IMG/VR virus record: IMGVR_UViG_3300000203_000003
Coordinates: 32,001 to 96,000 of that record
Strand: one strand, 5' to 3'
From: a virus
Lineage: Duplodnaviria; Caudoviricetes
DNA: 64,000 nucleotides
Positions 31,981 through 49,886 of the stretch are shown piece by piece. The position numbers and the translations under genes are program-made. The notes below the pieces were generated by a model, which was given only the letters and a program-made list of their open reading frames with translations, was not told where the DNA came from and did no database searches. How positions within the stretch are numbered: the first letter of the stretch is position 1; each line of letters begins with the position of its first letter.

Positions 31981-32069
31981 TAAATAAACTCATACACTCT
32001 CATTCTGAGAGTTTATGCTGTAACCCACAGCGTAGGACTAGAACTCCACACAACCTAAAGGAAAAACAA
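31981..32069 (+). promoter_or_regulatory. late promoter plus structured 5' leader
   Basis: TAAATA, then ACTCTC/GAGAGT and TATGCTGT/ACAGCGTA hairpins. Confidence 0.55.
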
Positions 32070-33251
32070 ATGGGACGCCCTCTTAAAATCGCCAAATCAC
32101 AATTCGTTGGCACAATCACCGGAACAACAACCGGTACAAACATCGTTACTTTCATCCCTGCTATAACTGCTACTGTTAACTTCACTGTAGGCATGCCTGT
32201 CGTTGTATCAACTACCGTCAGTAACATCATCGCCGGAACAACATATTGGGTACTAACTATGCCAAGCACATCGTCTATGACGTTAAGCTCGACCCCGTTA
32301 GATGCTAATATCAATAGGACACCGCTTGCACTTGGCACAGTCGGCCCGGTCACTGTTGGTTTCACTGTCAATTTAGTTGACTATGGTTTCAACAATCCAA
32401 ATGGTGCAGCTAACACATACAGCGTTGTCGGTGGCAACACCGGAAGCTATGGCAAGCAAGTTCTTGCTGATGTTGCTATCGGTCGCGTGGGCGCCGGAAC
32501 AGTAACATTGAACGGTACGGCTGGTAAAGAAATGTGGGGCGCTGGTACAGACTTTGCTAACACGTTGTCAGTTGGATCGTCAGTTGAACTGGCAGACGGC
32601 ACTATAGCAGGTCATGTCGCAGTGATTCCTGGCTACATCGTAGTCGCAGTTACAGATACAGAAGCAGTCGGTAGTATTGTTGTTGCAGTTAGCACAGCAG
32701 CAATGAACGCTCTTCAACCAATCGTGTTCAATGCTGATATCGGTAATTTAACAGCCGGCACAGTGTATTGGGTTCGTGATATTCTGAGTGTGACAGATTT
32801 TACTGTCAGTATGCAGCGCAACGGTTCTTTAGTAACGCTTGCTGATGATTCAGCAGTTGTGACTGGTCATCAAGATTATGTCGTGATGGGCGCTATCACT
32901 CCGCAACATTATGCACTGTCTGCTTGGACATATGCTGATAACGAATCTGGTTTCATCGTCAGACAAAAAGGTCGTAGCAAGTTCCTTGTAACTGGTCTGA
33001 CTTCAGGTCTAACTGGTGTTTGCTACACAGCAGATTTAGCAGCAGCAGCACTTGTGCCCGGCACAATGCGAGTCTCTGCAACAACAGCGGCACCGGCAAC
33101 TGTATTATTAGAAAGATTAGCTGATCATACAGCCAGAGGATTTGGTAACACTGATACTGCTACAGCATACTACGCATCGTTTAACGCAGCGATTGCAGCA
33201 AATGCAACGCCAAGTCAACCGTACGGAGTGATTACTGTTAATAACTCTTAA
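32070..33251 (+). CDS. putative virion structural protein
   Basis: MGRPLK start, Thr/Val/Gly-rich, IVRQKGRSKFLV. Confidence 0.65.
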   Translation: MGRPLKIAKSQFVGTITGTTTGTNIVTFIPAITATVNFTVGMPVVVSTTVSNIIAGTTYWVLTMPSTSSMTLSSTPLDANINRTPLALGTVGPVTVGFTVNLVDYGFNNPNGAANTYSVVGGNTGSYGKQVLADVAIGRVGAGTVTLNGTAGKEMWGAGTDFANTLSVGSSVELADGTIAGHVAVIPGYIVVAVTDTEAVGSIVVAVSTAAMNALQPIVFNADIGNLTAGTVYWVRDILSVTDFTVSMQRNGSLVTLADDSAVVTGHQDYVVMGAITPQHYALSAWTYADNESGFIVRQKGRSKFLVTGLTSGLTGVCYTADLAAAALVPGTMRVSATTAAPATVLLERLADHTARGFGNTDTATAYYASFNAAIAANATPSQPYGVITVNNS

Positions 33252-39325: not shown

Positions 39326-40531
39326 ATGGCAACTCGTAAACACAAAAAGACAGAAGACCACAGTCAAGTCAAGGCGCTGAACCCGCGTGATGTTGATCAA
39401 AAATATCTCGGCGACGAACCTCTGTTCGCCGAACAACCTGCAGCCGAGAATCGCAACTCAGCGATTGCCCGCGGTCTCGCATGGTATCATCGTTTCTACA
39501 CTCGCAAAGATGCCCGCGATATGCTGGCAACTTATCTTGACATTCATGAACGGACAGCAGATGCCAAAGTCATGCGTAAAGTCGATGAGGGCGAGTTCCG
39601 ACTGCCCACATTCGCATGGCTGTCTCGCATGGTCCTACGTGGTCTTGAACTGACAGAGCATGAAATGCTGTCATTGGAAAACGAAATCTCCAGGCTGCTG
39701 TTGACTATCAACAAGCCCGAAGTTAAGGTGACAAGCAAATTCACAACTGCGGCAAAGACTCCTGAACAGGCTGCAACTGCTAAGACAAACATCCAGGAGA
39801 CAATGCGTGAAAAGGCGCGTGAGGCTGCAGGTGAATTGGAGGGACTGTTTGATGACTACCTCACAGCAGGACAACCCACAAAACATTCGCTGCGTCCAAT
39901 GGATGAAGTGGCTAAGAAGAATGTCATGGTTCAACACATATCCATGCTCCGTGAAGTCTGGAACAAGAAACTTGCTGAAATGAATGAACTGCTCGAAGGC
40001 AAGGACGCTCAATTGGTTCAAGCGTACAGTCATTACAGCAAGCAACAAGTCAAGAATACGATCAAATTCATTGAGTTAATCATCAATGACCTCAATAGTT
40101 ATGTCAGTCTCAAAAAGACAACGAAAGCACCGCGCGCTCGTAAGGCGAGCCCGGTGGAAAAAACGGTCTCAAAAATGAAATATATGAAGGCGTTCAATGA
40201 CCCGGCAACAAAAGTAGATTTGATCAGTATCAGTCCTATTAAGGTACATAACGCCGAAGAAGTGTATCTGTATGATACCCAACTACGGAAGTTAACATAC
40301 CTAGTAGCCGATGAATATAGCAAAACTATGACTGTCAAAGGCACAACTATTTTGGGCTTCGACACAGCAAAAAGCCAGACAAAGACACTGCGTAAACCGG
40401 CAGAACAACTAAAGGAATTTCTGAAGTTGGGCAAACCGGCCGGACGAAAGTTTTTCGAGGCTATTCGGGCAGTAGCAACTATTCCCAAAGGTCGAACAAG
40501 CGACCGGACTATTATTTTGAAGGCGTCGTAA
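39326..40531 (+). CDS. phage hypothetical protein
   Basis: TTGACA-N17-TACAAT promoter at 39280; VKGTTILGFD..KTLRKP C-terminus. Confidence 0.75.
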   Translation: MATRKHKKTEDHSQVKALNPRDVDQKYLGDEPLFAEQPAAENRNSAIARGLAWYHRFYTRKDARDMLATYLDIHERTADAKVMRKVDEGEFRLPTFAWLSRMVLRGLELTEHEMLSLENEISRLLLTINKPEVKVTSKFTTAAKTPEQAATAKTNIQETMREKAREAAGELEGLFDDYLTAGQPTKHSLRPMDEVAKKNVMVQHISMLREVWNKKLAEMNELLEGKDAQLVQAYSHYSKQQVKNTIKFIELIINDLNSYVSLKKTTKAPRARKASPVEKTVSKMKYMKAFNDPATKVDLISISPIKVHNAEEVYLYDTQLRKLTYLVADEYSKTMTVKGTTILGFDTAKSQTKTLRKPAEQLKEFLKLGKPAGRKFFEAIRAVATIPKGRTSDRTIILKAS

Positions 40532-41234
40532 TCAACTGCCAACCCTTCACTGTCCTTACGGCACCGCGCACCATCTTATTGACGTTGCGCGATTCCAATT
40601 TATGACTGGTATAAAAATCGTGACGAGTTGTAAAAACTTCCTCTCCTGTATCTTTATGCCTAAAACCATATATTGTGTGATCATAACTGTGGTGCCTTCG
40701 CCCAGCAAAAGGGGATGTGCCATCCGGTTTGCGTGAAAAAGGATTGACATATCCCGGTATTAATGTTTTGGTTTTACTAACACTAGAACCATCTTCCCTC
40801 TTAAGGAGATTGTGTGTTTTATTCAGTACACGATCAATATTATGATTACTACCGTCCGGTCTAGTTTGCCATGGATGTGTTCCTTTCGTTACACGATCAG
40901 TTTGTACATTTGTTCCATCCGGTCTTGTCTGCCATGGATGTGTACCATTAATCACTTGTTGTAAATTTCTAGCCCGGTTGAGTTCAGATAATATTTCTGC
41001 AGGCATTGTCATTTTGCGCCCTATAAGCAGACATGCTCCGAAGTCTGATTGCCTATAATGAATATCATAATGCTCCTGGATACTTAGGGCTGCTAAATTA
41101 GATGGGCCATTGTTAGTACGATCACCATCTAAATGATGAATGTCATATGTGCGTCCGGTTACATCTTTTGGGATCGGACCGATATGGTTCTCGTATATTT
41201 TACGATACTTAGTTGTTCCACAATAAATACACAT
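40512..41234 (-). CDS. HNH homing endonuclease
   Basis: YDIHHLDGDRTNNGPSNLAALSIQEHYDIH; GTHPWQ repeats. Confidence 0.88.
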   Translation of the reverse strand: MCIYCGTTKYRKIYENHIGPIPKDVTGRTYDIHHLDGDRTNNGPSNLAALSIQEHYDIHYRQSDFGACLLIGRKMTMPAEILSELNRARNLQQVINGTHPWQTRPDGTNVQTDRVTKGTHPWQTRPDGSNHNIDRVLNKTHNLLKREDGSSVSKTKTLIPGYVNPFSRKPDGTSPFAGRRHHSYDHTIYGFRHKDTGEEVFTTRHDFYTSHKLESRNVNKMVRGAVRTVKGWQLITTPSK

Positions 41235-41299: not shown

Positions 41300-41355
41300 T
41301 CCGTTTTGATTGATTTCCTGTAAAAGATTATGTATAATCAAGTTTTAGGAATAAT

Positions 41356-41787
41356 ATGATCGATCTGAATAAGTATACCGAATTTGTCGAGGCTATTACA
41401 AGCCAAGCAAGCAATGATCTAACATCATTCACCAACTCAATATCCAGGGTTGATGCGAATTATGATGCCAATCAAGATAAGTATGGTCCCGATGTGAATG
41501 TGCCTTTGCTGATTACTGGTGCTATGGGTTTGTGTGGCGAAGCCGGTGAATTCAGTGAGATTGTCAAGAAGGTTTTATTTCATGGCAAAGAACTGAATGA
41601 AGAGGTCCATGCTCATCTGGTCAAAGAATTGGGTGATGTAATCTGGTACTGGACCAACACTTGTCGGGCACTCGGCGTTAACCCTAACGATGTGATCGCT
41701 CTCAATGTTTCAAAACTACAATCACGCTACCCGGGCGGAACATTCTCCGCTGCTGCCAGCGAGACTCGCAAAGAAGGCGACATCTAA
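41356..41787 (+). CDS. mazG: MazG-like nucleotide pyrophosphohydrolase
   Basis: GLCGEAGEFSEIVKK..KELGDVIWY..NVSKLQSRY. Confidence 0.88.
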   Translation: MIDLNKYTEFVEAITSQASNDLTSFTNSISRVDANYDANQDKYGPDVNVPLLITGAMGLCGEAGEFSEIVKKVLFHGKELNEEVHAHLVKELGDVIWYWTNTCRALGVNPNDVIALNVSKLQSRYPGGTFSAAASETRKEGDI

Positions 41788-42005
41788 TGATTAAATGGGA
41801 TGACGATCTTGTCCTCTTCAATGAGGAAGAATACAACAAACTCCCCGACGGAACTGAATTGACCTGCATTGACAAGTCGACCGTTATTAAGGGTAAGGAT
41901 GTTATCGACATGGATACTCGCGGTGGTCATATCGCTTTCGGTGTGAAGGATCCATGGAATCATCCCCTCAAGGATCTGTTCCTGATCTTTAAGTTAGTGC
42001 AATAG
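41787..42005 (+). CDS. small hypothetical protein
   Basis: TAATG coupling. Confidence 0.65.
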   Translation: MIKWDDDLVLFNEEEYNKLPDGTELTCIDKSTVIKGKDVIDMDTRGGHIAFGVKDPWNHPLKDLFLIFKLVQ

Positions 42006-42009
42006 CAGT

Positions 42010-42495
42010 AATAACTTGGCAATAGGTCGGCACACCTCGAAGTGTCCTACAACCTCGTCCTCAACCCATGGTGTGACGGTAGAAGCGCGCCAACGCTAAA
42101 TTTATAGGACTACCCTTCGGGATGCCTAAACGCCTGCTCACAGCAGTTCACGTTTCCTATACCTTAACGGTTGTGATAGAGTAATCTACGAAAAGTTTGT
42201 CACGCCAGAGTAATTGCGGTAGAGGGCGTGGGCTGGTTGAATCTCCTCGATGAACCACGGTTCAACATAACAGCGAATACAGCAAATCCCAGAAATGGTT
42301 AGTGAGACATAGACAATCCTCCACTATAATATTTGAATTCATCGTCGCACCTTCGGGCCTCAAGAATAGACCTATGGCGTAGTGGATTTATATCTACTCG
42401 CCATGCCTAAGAATAGATGTGAAGTCCCCGTTTAAGATATCATTAAAAAGACCCGAGCGAAAAAGCGAAGGGTTAAAGACCCGTAGGGTCTGTGT
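42010..42495 (+). ncRNA. candidate large structured non-coding RNA (unidentified)
   Basis: no ORF of 60 aa or more; nested long-range helices, two C(UUCG)G motifs, several hairpins. Confidence 0.5.
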
Positions 42496-42541
42496 TAAGA
42501 TGCGTGAATAAATGAATAGATCCGGGATGAAAAATCAAGGA

Positions 42542-42569
42542 AAATACTATGGCAACAGGACTCACTTTA
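42542..42569 (+). repeat. duplicated 5' end of neck gene (28 nt, 1 mismatch to 43833..43860)
   Basis: AAATACTATGGCAACAGGACTYACTTTA. Confidence 0.8.
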
Positions 42570-42612
42570 AAAGGTGTTATTTAACTGGACCTTTTTTCGT
42601 AATAAATATGTT

Positions 42613-43200
42613 ATGGCACATAACATATTAATATGCGGAGATAGTTTTGCTGCGGACTGGACAGTAAAGAGAGCAGGCATCGGCTGGCCCAATTTGTTAG
42701 CGAAAGATTTTAGCGTTACCAATCTAGCGCAAGCTGGGTGCAGCGAGTATAAAATCTTTAAACAAATTACGTCAGTTGATATTACCGCCTTCTCCCATGT
42801 GATAATATCACACACAAGCCCCCTTCGATTGGTGGTGAGGGAACATCCGGTGCATAAGACAGATTCGCTTCATCATAGCAGCGACCTAATATATGCTGAT
42901 ATAAAAGAACATAGCAAAAAATTCAAAAATCTACTTCCTATCGTTGATTATTTCGAGAATTATTTCGACATGGAATCTGCTGTGTTTATGCACACCTTAT
43001 TGTGTGAAAAGATATGTTCAATAACCAATGTGATCTATCCGAAAATTATTCACGTGGTTAATTCAGAATGGAGTAACCTTTACCAGTTTAAAGATATGCT
43101 GAATTTTGCTGAGGTGCACCGGGATAACCCAGGATATTTCAACCACTACTCCGCTATAGGTAATCACATAATATATGACATCATCAAACAACACTTATAA
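42613..43200 (+). CDS. SGNH hydrolase-like protein
   Basis: CGDSF, NLAQAGCSE, NHYS..GN. Confidence 0.7.
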   Translation: MAHNILICGDSFAADWTVKRAGIGWPNLLAKDFSVTNLAQAGCSEYKIFKQITSVDITAFSHVIISHTSPLRLVVREHPVHKTDSLHHSSDLIYADIKEHSKKFKNLLPIVDYFENYFDMESAVFMHTLLCEKICSITNVIYPKIIHVVNSEWSNLYQFKDMLNFAEVHRDNPGYFNHYSAIGNHIIYDIIKQHL

Positions 43201-43822
43201 GCGATTAATAGCGTTCGGGGCATCCGTAACATTCGGACACGGTTTAATCGATTGCTATAACTTCGACACCGCTGGCTCAGGCCAGACTCCTAGTAGGTTG
43301 TCATGGCCGGCTTTAGTAGCTGATGCTATGAATATAGAATGTGATAATCGGGCCGAGTGCGGCGCACCGAACTTAAAGATTTTATTAAACGTATTAAGCG
43401 CGGATACCTGCACTGCTGATCTTGTTATTATTTTATGGAATATTTCTGATCTTAGTATTCTATTTGACGATGTGGGGGAAATTATTCGCCTCGGCCCTAA
43501 TGAAAAAAATCAGATGCATCTGTGCAAAGAATTTTATATGGCCCATTCCGAATATGATTTAAGCGTGAGAACTCTACTGGACATTGGTCATTCAACTAAC
43601 TATTTGGAAAATAAAAACGTAACCGTATATAATTTTTATAATGATGAAAATTTACATAATTTTATTGCCGGCGCCGCCCTACCACTGCCACTAACCGGTT
43701 CTATCAGATACCTCGACGCATCAGTTAATCTAGATCAGGGTCTAGACGGTATCCACCCCGGTCCTCTCTCGCATGCAGCTATTGCAGACTTGATACTGAC
43801 ACACATAAGAACTGATAAATAG
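43175..43822 (+). CDS. SGNH hydrolase-like protein
   Basis: FGASVTFG, NRAECGAPN, DGIHPG..SH. Confidence 0.72.
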   Translation: MTSSNNTYKRLIAFGASVTFGHGLIDCYNFDTAGSGQTPSRLSWPALVADAMNIECDNRAECGAPNLKILLNVLSADTCTADLVIILWNISDLSILFDDVGEIIRLGPNEKNQMHLCKEFYMAHSEYDLSVRTLLDIGHSTNYLENKNVTVYNFYNDENLHNFIAGAALPLPLTGSIRYLDASVNLDQGLDGIHPGPLSHAAIADLILTHIRTDK

Positions 43823-43839
43823 AATATCAGGGAAATACT

Positions 43840-44604
43840 ATGGCAACAGGACTTACTTTAGAAGAACGCAAGCAACAACTATTCGATAACCTCAGCAACA
43901 GACTTGGTGCTGGGATTATCGATTTGGAAATCGATCCTGCTCACTATGAGACGGCATTCAATTACGCCGTTCAGGTGTATCGTCAACGGGCGCAGAACGC
44001 CACGGAAGAAACGTATACTCTGTTCACCACTGAAATCAACGTTGATACATACACGCTTCCGGAGCAGTTCATCAACGTCAGATCGTTATTCAGACGCACG
44101 GTTGGTCTTGATACTGGCCCTTCATCATCCTCATTCGATCCTTTCAGCAGTGCTATTCTTAACACATATTTGTTGAACTACAACGCCGCAGGTGGTCTGG
44201 CAACGTATGACTTCTATGCAGGCTACGTTGAGTTAGCGGCAAGAATGTTCGGTGGATATGTTATTTATACCTTCAACCCAGTCAGCAAAGTGCTGCGTAT
44301 CGTGCGTGACCCTAAATCGACTGGTGAGAAGATTCTTATCTGGGCCGACGTTCTGAAAACAGAAGAAACACTGCTACAAGACTTGGGTTCAGGTCCATGG
44401 ATCGGTGACTGGACTCTTGCTGAACTGAAGATCATCATTGGTAGTGCGCGTGAAAAGTTCAGCACAATCGCAGGTCCAGGCGGCGGCACCACTCTCAACG
44501 GTGCAGCAATGAAAGCAGACGGAGAGAAAATGAAAGAAACTCTTTTAGAAGACCTGAAACGCTTCGTTGACTATTCACAACCCCTAACCTGGGTAATCGG
44601 TTAA
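43840..44604 (+). CDS. neck protein (T4 gp13-like)
   Basis: RLGAGIIDLEID..REKFSTIAGPGGGTTLNG..WVIG. Confidence 0.8.
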   Translation: MATGLTLEERKQQLFDNLSNRLGAGIIDLEIDPAHYETAFNYAVQVYRQRAQNATEETYTLFTTEINVDTYTLPEQFINVRSLFRRTVGLDTGPSSSSFDPFSSAILNTYLLNYNAAGGLATYDFYAGYVELAARMFGGYVIYTFNPVSKVLRIVRDPKSTGEKILIWADVLKTEETLLQDLGSGPWIGDWTLAELKIIIGSAREKFSTIAGPGGGTTLNGAAMKADGEKMKETLLEDLKRFVDYSQPLTWVIG

Positions 44605-46310: not shown

Positions 46311-49300
46311 ATGGCATTAACATCACCAGGCGTAGAAGTCACAATCATTGACCAAAGCCAATATCTACCAGCACCGGGCGGTTCAGTTCCTCTTGTTATT
46401 TTGGCAACAGCGCAAAATAAGTCTGATGCTTCTGGTACTGCTGTTGCTGCTGCAACAACTGCAACAAACGCAGGCAAGCTGTTCCAAGTTACAAGTCAAC
46501 GCGACCTGGTCAACTTGTACGGTTCACCGTTCTTCTATTCTACAACGAATGGTACTCCTATTCAGGGTTACGAGTTGAACGAATACGGTCTACTTGCTGC
46601 TTACTCGTTACTCGGAGTTACTAATCGTTGCTACGTTTTACGTGCAGACATTGATCTGGCCAGCTTAGTTGGTCAAACAGGTCGTCCTACTGGTTTTGTT
46701 GATAACGGAACATACTGGTTAGACACAACTGATTCTACTTGGGGCATCTATCAGTTCAATGCGGGTACAGGCAAGTTCACACTTCAAAGCCCGATCGTTA
46801 TCACTAATCCCGATGATTTAACTGGCGGTGTTCCTCTGAACAGCATCGGTAATATTGGTGACTATGCAGTAAATACACTGCACACTTCGTCTTATCCTAG
46901 TGACCCTACATCAAGACAGTATTTTTACAAAACTACTCAAAATATTTGGACAACACTGGGTGGCGGATTATGGCGCGGCGACATTCCTACGGTTATCGGG
47001 AACAATGCGGTACCTTCCAATACTTTAGTCGCCGGTCAGTCATTCAATATCCATTGCAATGGTCTATATACTGCAACAATTACTGTGCCAGATGATGGCG
47101 GCGGCTTCGGTTCAGTGGGGAGCGTGGCCGGTGTTATCCAGACTCTGGGTTGGTCAACTTTAACTGCTTCAGTTCGAAGCGGTAAATTATGTGTATTTTC
47201 AAAACAGCCAAAAACAGGCGCGCCCGTATATTTAAATTTTAGTTCCAGTTCTGGTTCAGTACTGGCTGATATCGGAATTGCTGCAAACACAAATTTATAT
47301 CAACCTAGTCTAATTTACGGCACTTCTGCGGAAATGCCGCTGTGGTCGAGCAGTCAGACGTACCCAAGACCAACCGGGTCTGTATGGATTAAAGTCGGGG
47401 CAGCGGGTAACGGACTGCAACCAGTCGTATCTAAATTTAATTCTACCACTCAACTATGGGTGAACAAGAATGTTTCTTTATACACATCAGACTGGGCTGC
47501 TAATGCAGAATTAGATGGATCAGGCGGTGCCGGCATTGCTGCTGGTACGGTGTATGCTCAATACAACTTTGATCTTCAATACCCTTTAGGACCAGTTTAT
47601 CTATACGAAAGATTGGCGACCGGCCCGACAGTAGTTACAGGAACAACAATTCCTACAACGTTCAGTGCAGGCACTATTACAGTACAAGTTAGCACCCCTA
47701 GCGGCCCTAACTTAACAACCGCGCAAACAGTAACTATTACAGCACCGCTAGGCGCACAAGGCGCTGTCGGCTTCGTTACAGCATGGTCCGCTGCTAATAT
47801 TCTTTATACGACAGCAAGCGTTACTACAGACGGCGCAATTCAACTAACTCACACTGAAGGCGGAGCAATTGTTCTAGATGACTCGATCGGCGGGGTTAGT
47901 AACGGAATAATCGCTGCAGCAGGATTTGTAGTTAATTCTACTACTGGATGCAAATATGGGCCTAGTGTTACCGCTGTCTTCAGTAATGCACCGTTAGTCG
48001 GCGGCCCCGGTACAAATGGTGAAGCAAGTGTCACCTCAGTCACAGGATCATATATTTTAAACGGTGCTGGTGTCGGTGGAAATGCGGGCACCGGTTACAC
48101 AGTGGGAGATGTGCTTACTGTGCTAGGTTCTTCGCTAGGCGGAATTACTGGAGTAAACGATCTAGTAGTTGAGGTTGCCGCAGTCGGCGGATCGACTAAT
48201 ATCACAGCATTGGCATATGTGTCAGGTGCACCTTCTGCAATGTATACTACTCAATTGAGTAATTGGGTTGATTTTGACTATATCTCGAACGAGGGCCCGC
48301 CTGTCGCTGACCCTGTTAACAACAAGAACTGGTTCTACAGCGTCACTGACGAAGTTGATATCATGGTTCAAAAGGGCGGCGCATGGGTTGGTTATGGCCA
48401 GACTAACTACGATAGTTCGGGTTTCCCGACGACAGGTGTTAACGCAACTGACCCGATGGGCCCGATCATTTCTGCATCTTCCCCGACTGTTCAGAATGAT
48501 GGATCAGTATTAGTTTATGGTGATCTTTGGATCGATACAAGTGATCTTGAAAACTATCCAGTTATCTCTCGTTGGGAAGCAGTAGGTGATGTTGGTAGTC
48601 AAGTTGATCAATGGGTTCTGTTAGATAACTCTGACCAGACTAGTTCAACTGGTGTTCTATTTGCAGATGCTCGTTGGGCAACGGCTGATACAGTAAGTCC
48701 TACTCAGGATCCGATGGCAACTATCCCAGCATTGCTACAAAGCAGATATCTTGATCTGGATGCTCCTCAGGCAACTCTGTATCCACAAGGCATGTTATTA
48801 TTCAACACACGCCGCTCAGGTTACAACGTCAAGCAATATCGTTCAGCATACTTCAACATGACTGACTTCCCAGGAGAAACACTTCCTACAGAGAAGGCAG
48901 CATGGGTTACAGTAAGCGGTAATCAATCAAATGGTTCACCGTACATGGGTCGCAAGGCACAACGTGCTATGGTTGTTGAAGCAATGAACGCAATAGTGTC
49001 TACTAACACAGACATCCGTGATGACGATAACTTCTTCAATCTGATGGCAGCACCTAACTACCCAGAACTACAACCTGGTATGGTTACGCTGAACAATGAT
49101 CGTGGTATGACTGGCTACATCATCGGTGACACACCGCTAAGATTAGCAGCAAGCGCAACTGACATTCAAGCTTGGGCTACTAATGCAGCTGGTGCTACTG
49201 GAACAGGCGAAGCAGGTTGCGTAACACGCGACACTTACTTAGGTCTGTTCTATCCAAGTGGTATTACATCTGACTTGTCAGGTAACTTGGTTGCAGTGCC

Positions 49301-49886
49301 ATCGTCACACATGATGCTCCGTACATTCTTGCGTAACGACAGTATCGCTTATCCTTGGTTAGCTGCTGCTGGTACTCGTCGTGGTATCATCGACAATGCT
49401 TCTAACATTGGTTATCTTGATGCTGCAACAGGCGAGTTCCAGACTATTAAAACAAGTCTTGGTCTTCGTGATGTGCTGTATACAAACTTCATCAACCCAA
49501 TGGTGTTCTTCACCGGAGTTGGTCTGTTGAACTACGGTAACAAGACAAGTTTCAACTCGTCTAGTGCCCTTGACAGAACTAACGTTGCTCGTTTAGTTGC
49601 GTACATTCGTCGTCAGTTGACATTAGCGGCTCGTCCGTTTGTGTTCGAACCGAACGATGCAGTGACACGTAATCAAATTGGCGGTGTTGTTCAGACATTG
49701 ATGGCTGACTTGGTTGCAAAACGTGGTCTATATGACTATCTGGTTGTGTGTGATGAATCAAACAACACACCTGCTAGAATTGACAGAAATGAACTTTGGA
49801 TTGATGTTGCGGTTGAACCCGTGAAAGCTGCTGAATTCATTTACATCCCGGTTCGTATTCTGAACACGGGTGAATTGAGCGCATAA
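46311..49886 (+). CDS. contractile tail sheath protein (T4 gp18-like, with large insertions)
   Basis: MALTSPGVEVTIIDQS; PWLAAAGTRRG; FEPND; CDESNNTPARIDRNEL..P.KAAEFIYI. Confidence 0.95.
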   Translation: MALTSPGVEVTIIDQSQYLPAPGGSVPLVILATAQNKSDASGTAVAAATTATNAGKLFQVTSQRDLVNLYGSPFFYSTTNGTPIQGYELNEYGLLAAYSLLGVTNRCYVLRADIDLASLVGQTGRPTGFVDNGTYWLDTTDSTWGIYQFNAGTGKFTLQSPIVITNPDDLTGGVPLNSIGNIGDYAVNTLHTSSYPSDPTSRQYFYKTTQNIWTTLGGGLWRGDIPTVIGNNAVPSNTLVAGQSFNIHCNGLYTATITVPDDGGGFGSVGSVAGVIQTLGWSTLTASVRSGKLCVFSKQPKTGAPVYLNFSSSSGSVLADIGIAANTNLYQPSLIYGTSAEMPLWSSSQTYPRPTGSVWIKVGAAGNGLQPVVSKFNSTTQLWVNKNVSLYTSDWAANAELDGSGGAGIAAGTVYAQYNFDLQYPLGPVYLYERLATGPTVVTGTTIPTTFSAGTITVQVSTPSGPNLTTAQTVTITAPLGAQGAVGFVTAWSAANILYTTASVTTDGAIQLTHTEGGAIVLDDSIGGVSNGIIAAAGFVVNSTTGCKYGPSVTAVFSNAPLVGGPGTNGEASVTSVTGSYILNGAGVGGNAGTGYTVGDVLTVLGSSLGGITGVNDLVVEVAAVGGSTNITALAYVSGAPSAMYTTQLSNWVDFDYISNEGPPVADPVNNKNWFYSVTDEVDIMVQKGGAWVGYGQTNYDSSGFPTTGVNATDPMGPIISASSPTVQNDGSVLVYGDLWIDTSDLENYPVISRWEAVGDVGSQVDQWVLLDNSDQTSSTGVLFADARWATADTVSPTQDPMATIPALLQSRYLDLDAPQATLYPQGMLLFNTRRSGYNVKQYRSAYFNMTDFPGETLPTEKAAWVTVSGNQSNGSPYMGRKAQRAMVVEAMNAIVSTNTDIRDDDNFFNLMAAPNYPELQPGMVTLNNDRGMTGYIIGDTPLRLAASATDIQAWATNAAGATGTGEAGCVTRDTYLGLFYPSGITSDLSGNLVAVPSSHMMLRTFLRNDSIAYPWLAAAGTRRGIIDNASNIGYLDAATGEFQTIKTSLGLRDVLYTNFINPMVFFTGVGLLNYGNKTSFNSSSALDRTNVARLVAYIRRQLTLAARPFVFEPNDAVTRNQIGGVVQTLMADLVAKRGLYDYLVVCDESNNTPARIDRNELWIDVAVEPVKAAEFIYIPVRILNTGELSA

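Follow-up and report, generated by a model that had tools for sequence, protein, structure and literature searches.

The 64,000-nucleotide (nt) stretch of DNA analyzed here (the window) comprises bases 32001–96000 of a 142-kb IMG/VR virus contig that is estimated to be 41% complete. Its gene content is that of a giant T4-like myovirus and includes a tail sheath protein of 1191 amino acids (aa), a gp13-like neck protein, a dNMP kinase and MazG. By the neck protein, the nearest cultured phages are the Rak2-like jumbo phages (K64-1, 121Q), Atu_ph07 and XaC1, with about 36–37% identity, and related contigs have sizes up to 359–364 kb. Downstream of mazG and a small open reading frame (ORF) of 72 aa is a gene-free region for which a large non-coding RNA had been proposed from the sequence of the window alone (termed here the original prediction). 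This region contains a conserved element that in all probability is a structured RNA of a family new to Rfam. The element and its neighbors are listed in Table 1.

The largest stretch of the window that lacks ORFs of at least 50–60 aa, with both strands considered, is at positions 42006–42566, and the original prediction was correct in this respect. A conservation profile rises at about 42012 and drops past 42416. The conserved RNA thus ends well before the right edge of the predicted extent, 42010–42495. A hairpin at the right, AGACCC/GGGTCT, had been taken as part of the RNA; it is outside of the conserved block and is located in a lineage-specific spacer. The element displays no conserved reading frame. 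The median length of the longest stop-free frame is 61 codons, with no constant strand or frame. Lengths of the element in relatives differ by numbers of nucleotides that are not multiples of three. The element is therefore considered non-coding.

A blastn comparison with loci fetched through MazG and gp13 matched positions 42010–42415 in nine loci (68–80% identity), and in each of these the element sits between the small ORF after mazG and gp13. The 17-mer GACATAGACAATCCTCC, which is invariant in the first ten sequences, was scanned exactly and found in 81 viral contigs. A further 18 viral contigs, with variant 17-mers, came from a second gapped pattern that was taken independently from loop L9, and a metagenome scan added 31 contigs, all of which were confirmed. 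The RNA element is thus found in 130 phage or metagenome loci, with 80 distinct near-full sequences. E-values from nhmmer on relatives range from 1e-35 to 1e-126. Individual loci are designated below by numbers, e.g. L145.

In the main clade the element is invariably located between the mazG operon and gp13. The divergent members L145, L138 and L193 show other gene neighborhoods; in L145 the element is 2.2 kb upstream of the large terminase gene, with neither mazG nor gp13 nearby. The element is present as a single copy in the 142-kb genome fragment. It is missing from the closest relatives of this phage, and variation in gene content is concentrated in the slot between mazG and gp13. L004 (gp13 99%, mazG 88%) has mazG, the 72-aa ORF alone, and then gp13 directly. 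Different inserts occupy the slot in L003 (about 1.4 kb of other DNA), L005 and L006 (an ORF-containing insert of about 660 nt) and L008 (a 234-nt ORF-bearing spacer), and in L053 the RNA directly follows mazG. Since close relatives have the slot without the RNA or with other inserts, the RNA appears to be accessory rather than essential.

No blastn match to cultured phages was found among 50,697 deposited phage records with the window element and two divergent members as queries. The 17-mer is present in 59 contigs of prokaryotes (185,579 species, one genome each), as compared to about 70 matches expected by chance in 596 Gb, and none of these was homologous by nhmmer. The RNA is phage-only in its distribution.

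A model of the fold was derived by hand from a MAFFT alignment of 52 distinct sequences. The alignment was not structure-fitted, and the model was tested on the same alignment. It was built by hand because other approaches performed poorly: RNAalifold on the full MAFFT alignment gave 43 pairs only, which is due to misalignment of the variable hairpins, base-pair probabilities of single sequences were inconsistent, and a naive scan that counts pair types was too noisy. The model has 79 pairs in 16 helices. These are 92.6% paired, compared with 36–48% when the 3′ partners are slid by 1–3 columns. Changes on both sides are found in 47 pairs (395 cells) versus 27 pairs (108 cells) in column shuffles, and none of 500 shuffles attains any of the five measures. 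An alignment-free test compared the duplex energy of the two strands of one sequence with that of strands from different sequences (self-versus-cross). It favors 14 helices by 1.0–6.4 kcal/mol, i.e. PK3, PK1b, H2, H3, H4, H6, H7, H9, H10, H11, PK2, H12, H14 and H16.

Overall the fold comprises about 20 helices together with four crossing pairings of the pseudoknot type, and its loops and junctions are highly conserved. It is a chain consisting of a 5′ pseudoknot domain, the three-way domain H4–H7, H9, H10/H11, the three-way domain H12–H14 and the 3′ hairpin H16. The domains are tied together by PK1, by pairing of the 5′ end with loop L3, of loop L11 with a downstream strand, and of loop L9 with the adjacent downstream strand. 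The nested long-range secondary structure of the original prediction is not the architecture found, which is a chain of local domains joined by crossing pairings.

Table 1. Positions of the RNA, its structural parts and neighboring features. All positions are in window numbering, and helix coordinates were checked against the window sequence. Self-versus-cross values are differences in duplex energy.
Feature	Position	Strand	Sequence and remarks
mazG promoter match, sigma-70-like	41310–41338	+	TTGATT-17-TATAAT; ahead of mazG; consensus scan only
mazG	41356–41787	+	upstream of RNA; evidence for mazG and the 72-aa ORF: Pfam MazG 1.7e-9, PHROG 229 1.8e-43, phrog_34791
72-aa ORF	41787–42005	+	between mazG and RNA; RNA begins 7 nt past its stop
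Conserved structured RNA (whole)	42012–42416	+	about 405 nt here, 384–495 nt in relatives; conservation profile, nhmmer, 79-pair model
PK3 crossing pairing	42016–20 / 42089–93	+	UUGGC / GCCAA in H3 loop; 90.9% paired, 25 compensatory cells, 0/500 shuffles for score (columns corrected)
PK1 H-type pseudoknot	42024–42047	+	AGGU 42024–27 / ACCU 42034–37, crossing GCAC 42030–33 / GUGU 42042–45
H2	42056–60 / 42075–79	+	CGUCC / GACGG; 99.4% paired; GC>CG and UA>AU swaps
H3	42084–87 / 42094–97	+	AGCG / CGCU; self-versus-cross -1.9 kcal/mol
Three-way domain H4–H7	42103–42161	+	H4 encloses variable hairpin H5 (42113–21), H6 and H7
H4	42103–09 / 42155–61	+	UAUAGGA / UCCUAUA; 100% paired; compensatory in 5/7 pairs
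H6	42128–32 / 42151–55	+	AAACG / CGUUU; 99.5% paired
H7	42134–38 / 42142–46	+	CUGCU / AGCAG; self-versus-cross -3.0 kcal/mol
H8, optional hairpin	42177–88	+	UAGA-GUAA-UCUA; GNRA-type loop; in 16/52 sequences
H9	42200–06 / 42225–31	+	UCACGCC / GGCGUGG; 99.7% paired; compensatory in 6/7 pairs; conserved 17–18-nt loop L9 AGAGUAAUUGCGGUAGA
L9 crossing pairing	42216–20 / 42344–48	+	GCGGU / GUCGC; 95.7% paired; GCGAU/AUCGC changed to GUGAU/AUCAC in L180, L200
H10	42232–35 / 42271–74	+	GCUG / CAGC; 100% paired; two compensatory pairs; encloses H11
H11	42236–41 / 42261–66	+	GUUGAA / UUCAAC; all 5 pairs compensatory; self-versus-cross -6.4 kcal/mol
PK2 crossing pairing	42248–54 / 42338–44	+	CGAUGAA in H11 loop / UUCAUCG; 99.7% paired; compensatory in 4/7
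Three-way domain H12–H14	42282–42335	+	H12 CAAAU/AUUUG, H13 CCA/UGG, H14 AGUGAGA/UCCUCCACU
H15, variable hairpin	42350–57	+	CC-UUCG-GG; absent from shortest members
Repeat 3a	42358–69	+	CCUCAAGAAUAG
H16	42374–42404	+	AUGGCG.AGUGGAU / AUCUACU.CGCCAU; 89.4% paired on MAFFT columns; self -12.9 vs cross -10.3 kcal/mol
Repeat 3b	42406–16	+	CCUAAGAAUAG; 3′ edge of conserved RNA
Terminator-like hairpin	42477–42491	+	AGACCC-GUA-GGGUCU; weak; in L053 this place is taken by another hairpin
Late-promoter-like box	42506–42514	+	GAAUAAAUG; ahead of dead neck-gene start
SGNH/GDSL-like ORFs, two	42613–43200, 43175–43822		between RNA and neck gene
gp13-like neck / head-tail adaptor gene	43840–44604	+	phrog_211 1.3e-24; synteny in relatives

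The sequences quoted in the original prediction are all present where it had placed them. Its hairpins AGCG/CGCT (H3), CTGCT/AGCAG (H7), GTTGAA/TTCAAC (H11) and ATGGCG.AGTGGAT/ATCTACT.CGCCAT (H16) show compensatory changes in relatives and are parts of the model. The hairpin CC-TTCG-GG (H5) persists as a hairpin in relatives with variable sequence and length, and it lacks self-versus-cross support. The four long-range helices, CGTCCTC/GAGGGCG, GGTGTGACG/TGTCACGCC, GTAGA/TCTAC and the closing ATAGGTC/GACCTAT, are not conserved. They are 68.9% paired in the 52 homologues versus 67.5% in shuffled sequences. These helices can form in the window, with energies of -11.6, -13.9, -3.7 and -9.2 kcal/mol, respectively. 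In the alignment, however, pairs such as 102–357, 120–331, 123–328 and 63–557 are unpaired in 41–45 of 52 sequences, and the partner segment of GTAGA/TCTAC is lacking in 36 of 52. Their strands are taken by local helices with covariation support, i.e. CGUCC/GACGG (H2), UCACGCC/GGCGUGG (H9) and UAGA-GUAA-UCUA (H8). The four long-range helices reflect chance complementarity in this window and are not features of the family.

The crossing pairings display numerous changes among relatives. Variants of PK3 are UUAGUC/GACUAA, UCAAGC/GCUUGA, CUGAUUA/UAAUCAG and UUGAUC/GAUCAA, with a self energy of -7.1 and a cross energy of -4.1 kcal/mol. The two helices of PK1 are 93.8% and 82% paired, seven of its eight pairs show changes on both sides, and variants include GGGC/GCCC, GAGU/ACUC and AAGU/ACUU. 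In PK2 a UA pair is replaced by CG in 17 sequences and a GC pair by AU or UA in eight. The L9 pairing has weaker support because both of its strands are mostly conserved. Covariation is compatible with pairing within one molecule and between copies alike, and does not decide between these for any of the crossing pairings. Several candidate tertiary pairs were considered and show no covariation, and they are not claimed here: L14 AUCC with J5/6 GGAU, UCUUA/UAAGA, CCUC/GAGG and GGUAGA/UCUACU.

The hairpins H5, H8 and H15 retain a stem while sequence and length change. H8 stems in relatives are UGUA/UACA, UGCA/UGCA and CCAA/UUGG, and the GUAA loop is kept in all; the self-versus-cross test gives H8 no support. 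H15 is represented elsewhere by CCC-GCAA-GGG, CUCU-GUAU-AGAG, CUCC-AUAGC-GGAG and CCCC-AUAU-GGGG. In the three-way domain near the 3′ end, H12 is 97.5% and H14 97.0% paired, with three and four compensatory pairs, respectively. The 12-nt loop of H14, CAUAGACAAUCC (positions 42308–42319), is near-invariant and varies slightly in members retrieved by the different pattern. The 3′ strand of H16 is nearly invariant, and its 5′ strand is variable with many G-U pairs. A sigma-70-like match, GTGAGA-17-TATAAT, is located within the RNA at positions 42302–42330 (+ strand), where it coincides with H14 and the UAAU that comes next. Conservation of the RNA sequence is the probable cause of this match, since the second hexamer is TGTAAT, CGTAAT or CTTAAT in relatives.

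Repeats 3a and 3b are direct repeats that flank H16, and each follows a helix strand ending in UCGCC. The two repeats change in parallel. Both are AGUAAUG in L117, AAAAGAUAGU in L270, AGAAGAU in L268, AAGCAG in L272 and UGCUGAUU in L145. Mutual information over all columns links the 3a and 3b columns with each other and with no clear third site. No consistent complementary site was found by a duplex scan within each element, and the reverse complement of the repeats has no partner in the 142-kb genome fragment. Most simply, 3a and 3b would be single-stranded and equivalent, and both would dock the same partner, which co-evolves with them. They may also be two substrates of an unseen guide, oligomer contacts, or the result of concerted evolution of an internal duplication.

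The sequence between the RNA and gp13 has a conserved feature as well. Of 60 loci, 54 have a box, GATAAATA, at 8–110 nt 3′ of the RNA, with +13 as the most frequent distance. In relatives with the RNA and in those without it (L004, L005, L008), this box is about 20 nt before the gp13 ATG. It resembles TATAAATA, the T4 late-promoter element. Thus transcripts of the late neck gene that start from this late-promoter-like box would not include the RNA. On the other side of the element, no terminator-like site was found in the window between the mazG promoter match and position 42012, and this match could be the source of a transcript that runs into the RNA.

The best explanation of the observations as a whole, to which we give a moderate probability, is that positions 42012–42416 of the + strand are the gene for a new, compact, stand-alone non-coding RNA of about 405 nt in a clade of uncultured giant (up to about 360 kb) T4-like myoviruses. 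The late-promoter-like box, the other gene contexts of divergent members and the absence of the RNA in relatives speak for an accessory RNA gene that is self-contained rather than a neck-gene leader, and that the RNA is stand-alone rather than cis-regulatory appears likely. The RNA would probably be produced as the tail of the mazG operon transcript and would then persist owing to its compact fold. It may act in trans as a stand-alone fold, e.g. as a scaffold for a partner, as a catalyst or as a self-assembling particle. Assignment of any particular molecular function from sequence is tentative at best.

Several points weigh against this interpretation. Retrieval of most members by the 17-mer biases the apparent invariance of the loops, a bias that the second pattern partly corrects. 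The shuffle controls overstate significance because the sequences are phylogenetically related; a purely phylogenetic origin of the signal is disfavored by the slide control and by the number of pair types seen. The whole-molecule minimum free energy does not differ between the + and - strands in 62 members (p = 0.49). No promoter or terminator of the RNA itself is identifiable. A GC hairpin with a U-run precedes the RNA by 2–8 nt in 12 of 58 loci, and there the RNA must come from read-through, processing or an unrecognized promoter; this hairpin is not present in the window. In the main clade the RNA is always directly upstream of gp13 on the same strand. This last point, the location of the RNA at the boundary of early and late genes, and the lack of its own terminator, by which upstream transcripts would run on into gp13, are features expected of a cis-acting leader or riboswitch-like RNA. 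Such an RNA would control the neck gene and the late structural operon on transcripts that continue from the early mazG operon; it might, for example, prevent translation from starting too soon, or modify RNA polymerase so that antitermination is processive. This is improbable, as the late-promoter-like box lies between the RNA and gp13 in most loci and RNA-less relatives retain the same promoter-gp13 layout. Divergent members have different downstream genes, and in the window a 1.3-kb cassette of two genes separates the RNA from gp13. The conserved block ends 40–170 nt before the gp13 ribosome binding site (RBS). There is no expression platform for a leader or riboswitch, in that the RBS is outside of the conserved block and no terminator follows it. 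In addition, about 400 nt with four pseudoknots far exceeds known leaders.

The strand of a self-contained RNA gene is indicated by the pairs themselves. G-U pairs outnumber A-C pairs by 136 to 25 in the supported helices (about 71 to 18 without two mostly-U-G columns), in agreement with the original prediction that G-U pairs favor the + strand. From this excess the RNA runs in the direction of mazG and gp13. An internal U-G pair of H9, found in 38 of 52 sequences and alternating with A-U, U-A and C-G, would be a C-A mismatch on the other strand. The + strand of the window element folds with -140.2 kcal/mol (z of -2.47, none of 100 shuffles as good), versus a z of -0.61 for the - strand. In the three divergent-context loci examined (L145, L138, L193) the RNA is co-directional with flanking ORFs. 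Location of the RNA on the + strand is very likely. In the reverse case the complement would be the functional RNA, with leftward transcription that begins close to the neck gene and stops at the left-edge GC hairpin. This case is very unlikely, and no conserved motif of a leftward promoter was found right of the element. It would account for the lack of an obvious terminator on the + strand RNA and for the equal energies of the two strands, and some of the left-edge hairpins have both A-runs and T-runs, so that bidirectional termination is possible. A DNA-level element, i.e. a replication origin, packaging site or recombination hotspot, is hardly credible. The size of the gene-free gap and the insertion hotspot in this phage group would fit such an element, and the parallel-varying repeats could be protein-binding DNA repeats. 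However the compensatory double changes, the tolerance of G-U on one strand only and the covariation of all four crossing pairings point to an RNA fold rather than a DNA site. A replication origin was the alternative in the original prediction, yet GC-skew analysis shows no turning point at 42 kb, an AT-rich unwinding region is absent, and there are no iterons besides 3a and 3b.

The left-edge hairpins (e.g. in L146, L189, L134, L153, L194 and L203) include AAACGGGC-CACAGU-GCCCGUUU and UAGGGC-UUCG-GCCCUA. In some relatives the U-run overlaps the 5′ AUUAUU of the RNA. Such hairpins might terminate transcription of the upstream operon or serve as processing sites, or they might belong to the RNA as a hairpin at its 5′ end.

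The RNA was compared with known classes. At gathering threshold, cmscan of the whole window against Rfam 15 (4227 models, including GOLLD, ROOL, OLE, HEARO, raiA, RNase P, tmRNA, group I/II introns and riboswitches) found freshwater-2 only. A permissive search of positions 41900–42700 (E<=10) gave only a chance miRNA match at 42596–42635, outside of the element, and a search of eight diverse homologues (E<=5) gave one unrelated miRNA match and nothing recurrent. ARAGORN found no tRNA or tmRNA in the window or the 142-kb fragment, and full-text literature searches found no description of this RNA. The original prediction, in which no tRNA, tmRNA, RNase P or intron core was recognized and an unclassified multi-domain phage RNA was proposed, holds in this respect: the RNA is conserved in many loci, is non-coding, shows compensatory changes above both controls and has no Rfam match.

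The RNA is most like the orphan “ornate” phage RNAs, which are large, phage-borne, pseudoknotted and of unknown function, but it is a member of none of their families. GOLLD (RF01998) and ROOL (RF03087) are non-coding, have many helices, and share with the RNA long-range or kissing pairings supported by covariation as well as strongly conserved loops. They are large “ornate” RNAs of phages and prophages that form RNA-only nanocages, and in ROOL one pairing that had first been assigned as a tertiary contact on the basis of covariation turned out to join separate molecules (bioRxiv 10.1101/2024.12.08.627333). By analogy, the PK2, PK3 or L9 pairing could be intermolecular. The RNA differs from both classes in that there is no sequence or covariance-model similarity (E<=10) and its length is about 400 nt versus about 580 and more than 800 nt. 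GOLLD and ROOL are often beside tRNA genes; here the neighbors are mazG and a neck gene, and the RNA is found in contigs of lytic-type giant myoviruses in a fixed slot before the neck gene.

The pRNA of phi29 is also a phage-encoded structured RNA. It acts in trans in the virion assembly machinery and has loop-loop pairings that covary, and the gene for the RNA described here is near neck genes or, in L145, the terminase gene. However pRNA is only about 120–174 nt, is limited to phi29-like podoviruses and has a different fold. An essential role in packaging is disfavored, since close relatives without the RNA package their DNA normally.

Group I introns of T4-like phages (td, nrdB, nrdD; RF00028) are similar in size and display a pseudoknotted core, GNRA-type loops and a patchy presence; a free-standing HNH endonuclease gene is also found near the element. 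Unlike these introns, the element has no model match, is intergenic, and displays neither a P1/P10 guide-exon context nor a recognizable conserved G-binding P7. The order of strands in the supported helices, as compared by eye only, appears to depart from P3-P4-P5-P5′-P4′-P6-P6′-P7-P3′-P8-P8′-P7′. A group I intron was rejected, given that no gene is interrupted and that the flanking genes are separate and complete in L004 and L008, which lack the element. The tmRNA (RF00023), of about 360 nt and with four pseudoknots, is similar to the RNA in these properties. The RNA has neither a tRNA-like acceptor/T-arm nor a tag reading frame, and ARAGORN and Rfam were negative.

A diverged or permuted member of a known large class (group I intron, RNase P RNA, tmRNA, GOLLD or ROOL) that the Rfam models have missed is highly improbable. 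The size, the multiple pseudoknots, the GUAA loop of GNRA type and the phage origin resemble these classes, and presence and absence among close relatives is reminiscent of mobile introns. Against this are the negative covariance-model and ARAGORN searches, a paired-strand order that does not appear to be the P3-P7 or P4 topology, the intergenic position, the lack of a fused reading frame in element-less relatives, and the absence of the tRNA genes that are typical of GOLLD and ROOL loci.

An IMG/VR survey of 2023 describes 8,495 unnamed candidate structured RNAs that average 67 nt (PMC10690425). The data source (IMG/VR contigs) and the type of evidence (covariation) are the same as here. The main text of that survey does not mention mazG, neck genes or jumbo phages. 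Parts of the RNA may be among the unnamed candidates listed.

To our knowledge, large RNAs with intricate conserved folds are rare, and nearly all of those with known function are ribozymes, riboswitches or ribonucleoprotein cores. The orphan classes GOLLD, ROOL and OLE have recently been found to form unprecedented RNA-only assemblies. The RNA would be a further class of this caliber, with about 400 nt, about 20 helices, four crossing pairings, near-invariant loops and 80 distinct variants. What is new is the family and the fold; orphan ornate phage RNAs as a concept already have precedents. The RNA could be the first known example of a new functional class, either a self-assembling RNA-only particle, as ROOL and GOLLD proved to be, or a new ribozyme, although this is doubtful. 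In the case of a particle, one or more of the L11/UUCAUCG, L9/GUCGC and 5′ end/L3 pairings would form between molecules, with the 3′ repeats as docking sites. In the case of a ribozyme, the co-varying repeats would be its two substrates, recognized by means of an unseen guide. Either way, the RNA would serve giant phages as an accessory weapon or tool during infection. The accessory status in uncultured giant phages points to a role in phage-host conflict or cell takeover rather than in building the basic virion. With the alignment, the RNA can be tested in vitro without a cultured host. Two direct repeats that co-vary in parallel are an unusual signature, through which the partner might be identified.

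The usual downstream neighbor of the RNA is gp13, which in the window is displaced by the two-gene insertion. The RBS and first codons of the neck gene are duplicated at positions 42538–42573 and 43829–43864 (36 nt, 92% identical). The first copy of the neck-gene start is dead after MATGLTLKGVI, and the cassette, positions 42574–43828, separates the two copies. L004, L005 and L008 have the promoter box, RBS and gp13 without a cassette, and in L004 and L053 SGNH-like genes are located upstream of mazG instead. The cassette looks like a recombinational insertion that recreated the start of the neck gene.

The free-standing HNH endonuclease gene is at positions 40512–41234 on the - strand (Pfam HNH_3 2.9e-10; PHROG “intron-like DNA endonuclease”), between a 410-aa gene and mazG. 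These two genes are adjacent in L003, L005 and L008, with no space for an HNH gene, which thus looks like a mobile insertion.

The freshwater-2 RNA (RF02980) is found at positions 31996–32072 (+ strand), just ahead of an ORF that starts at 32070, with 57.2 bits versus a gathering threshold of 49.9. The tail sheath gene is at positions 46311–49886 (+ strand). Its best PHROG model, phrog_10581 (915 positions), is matched end to end, and the sheath protein therefore holds about 280 aa of insertions.

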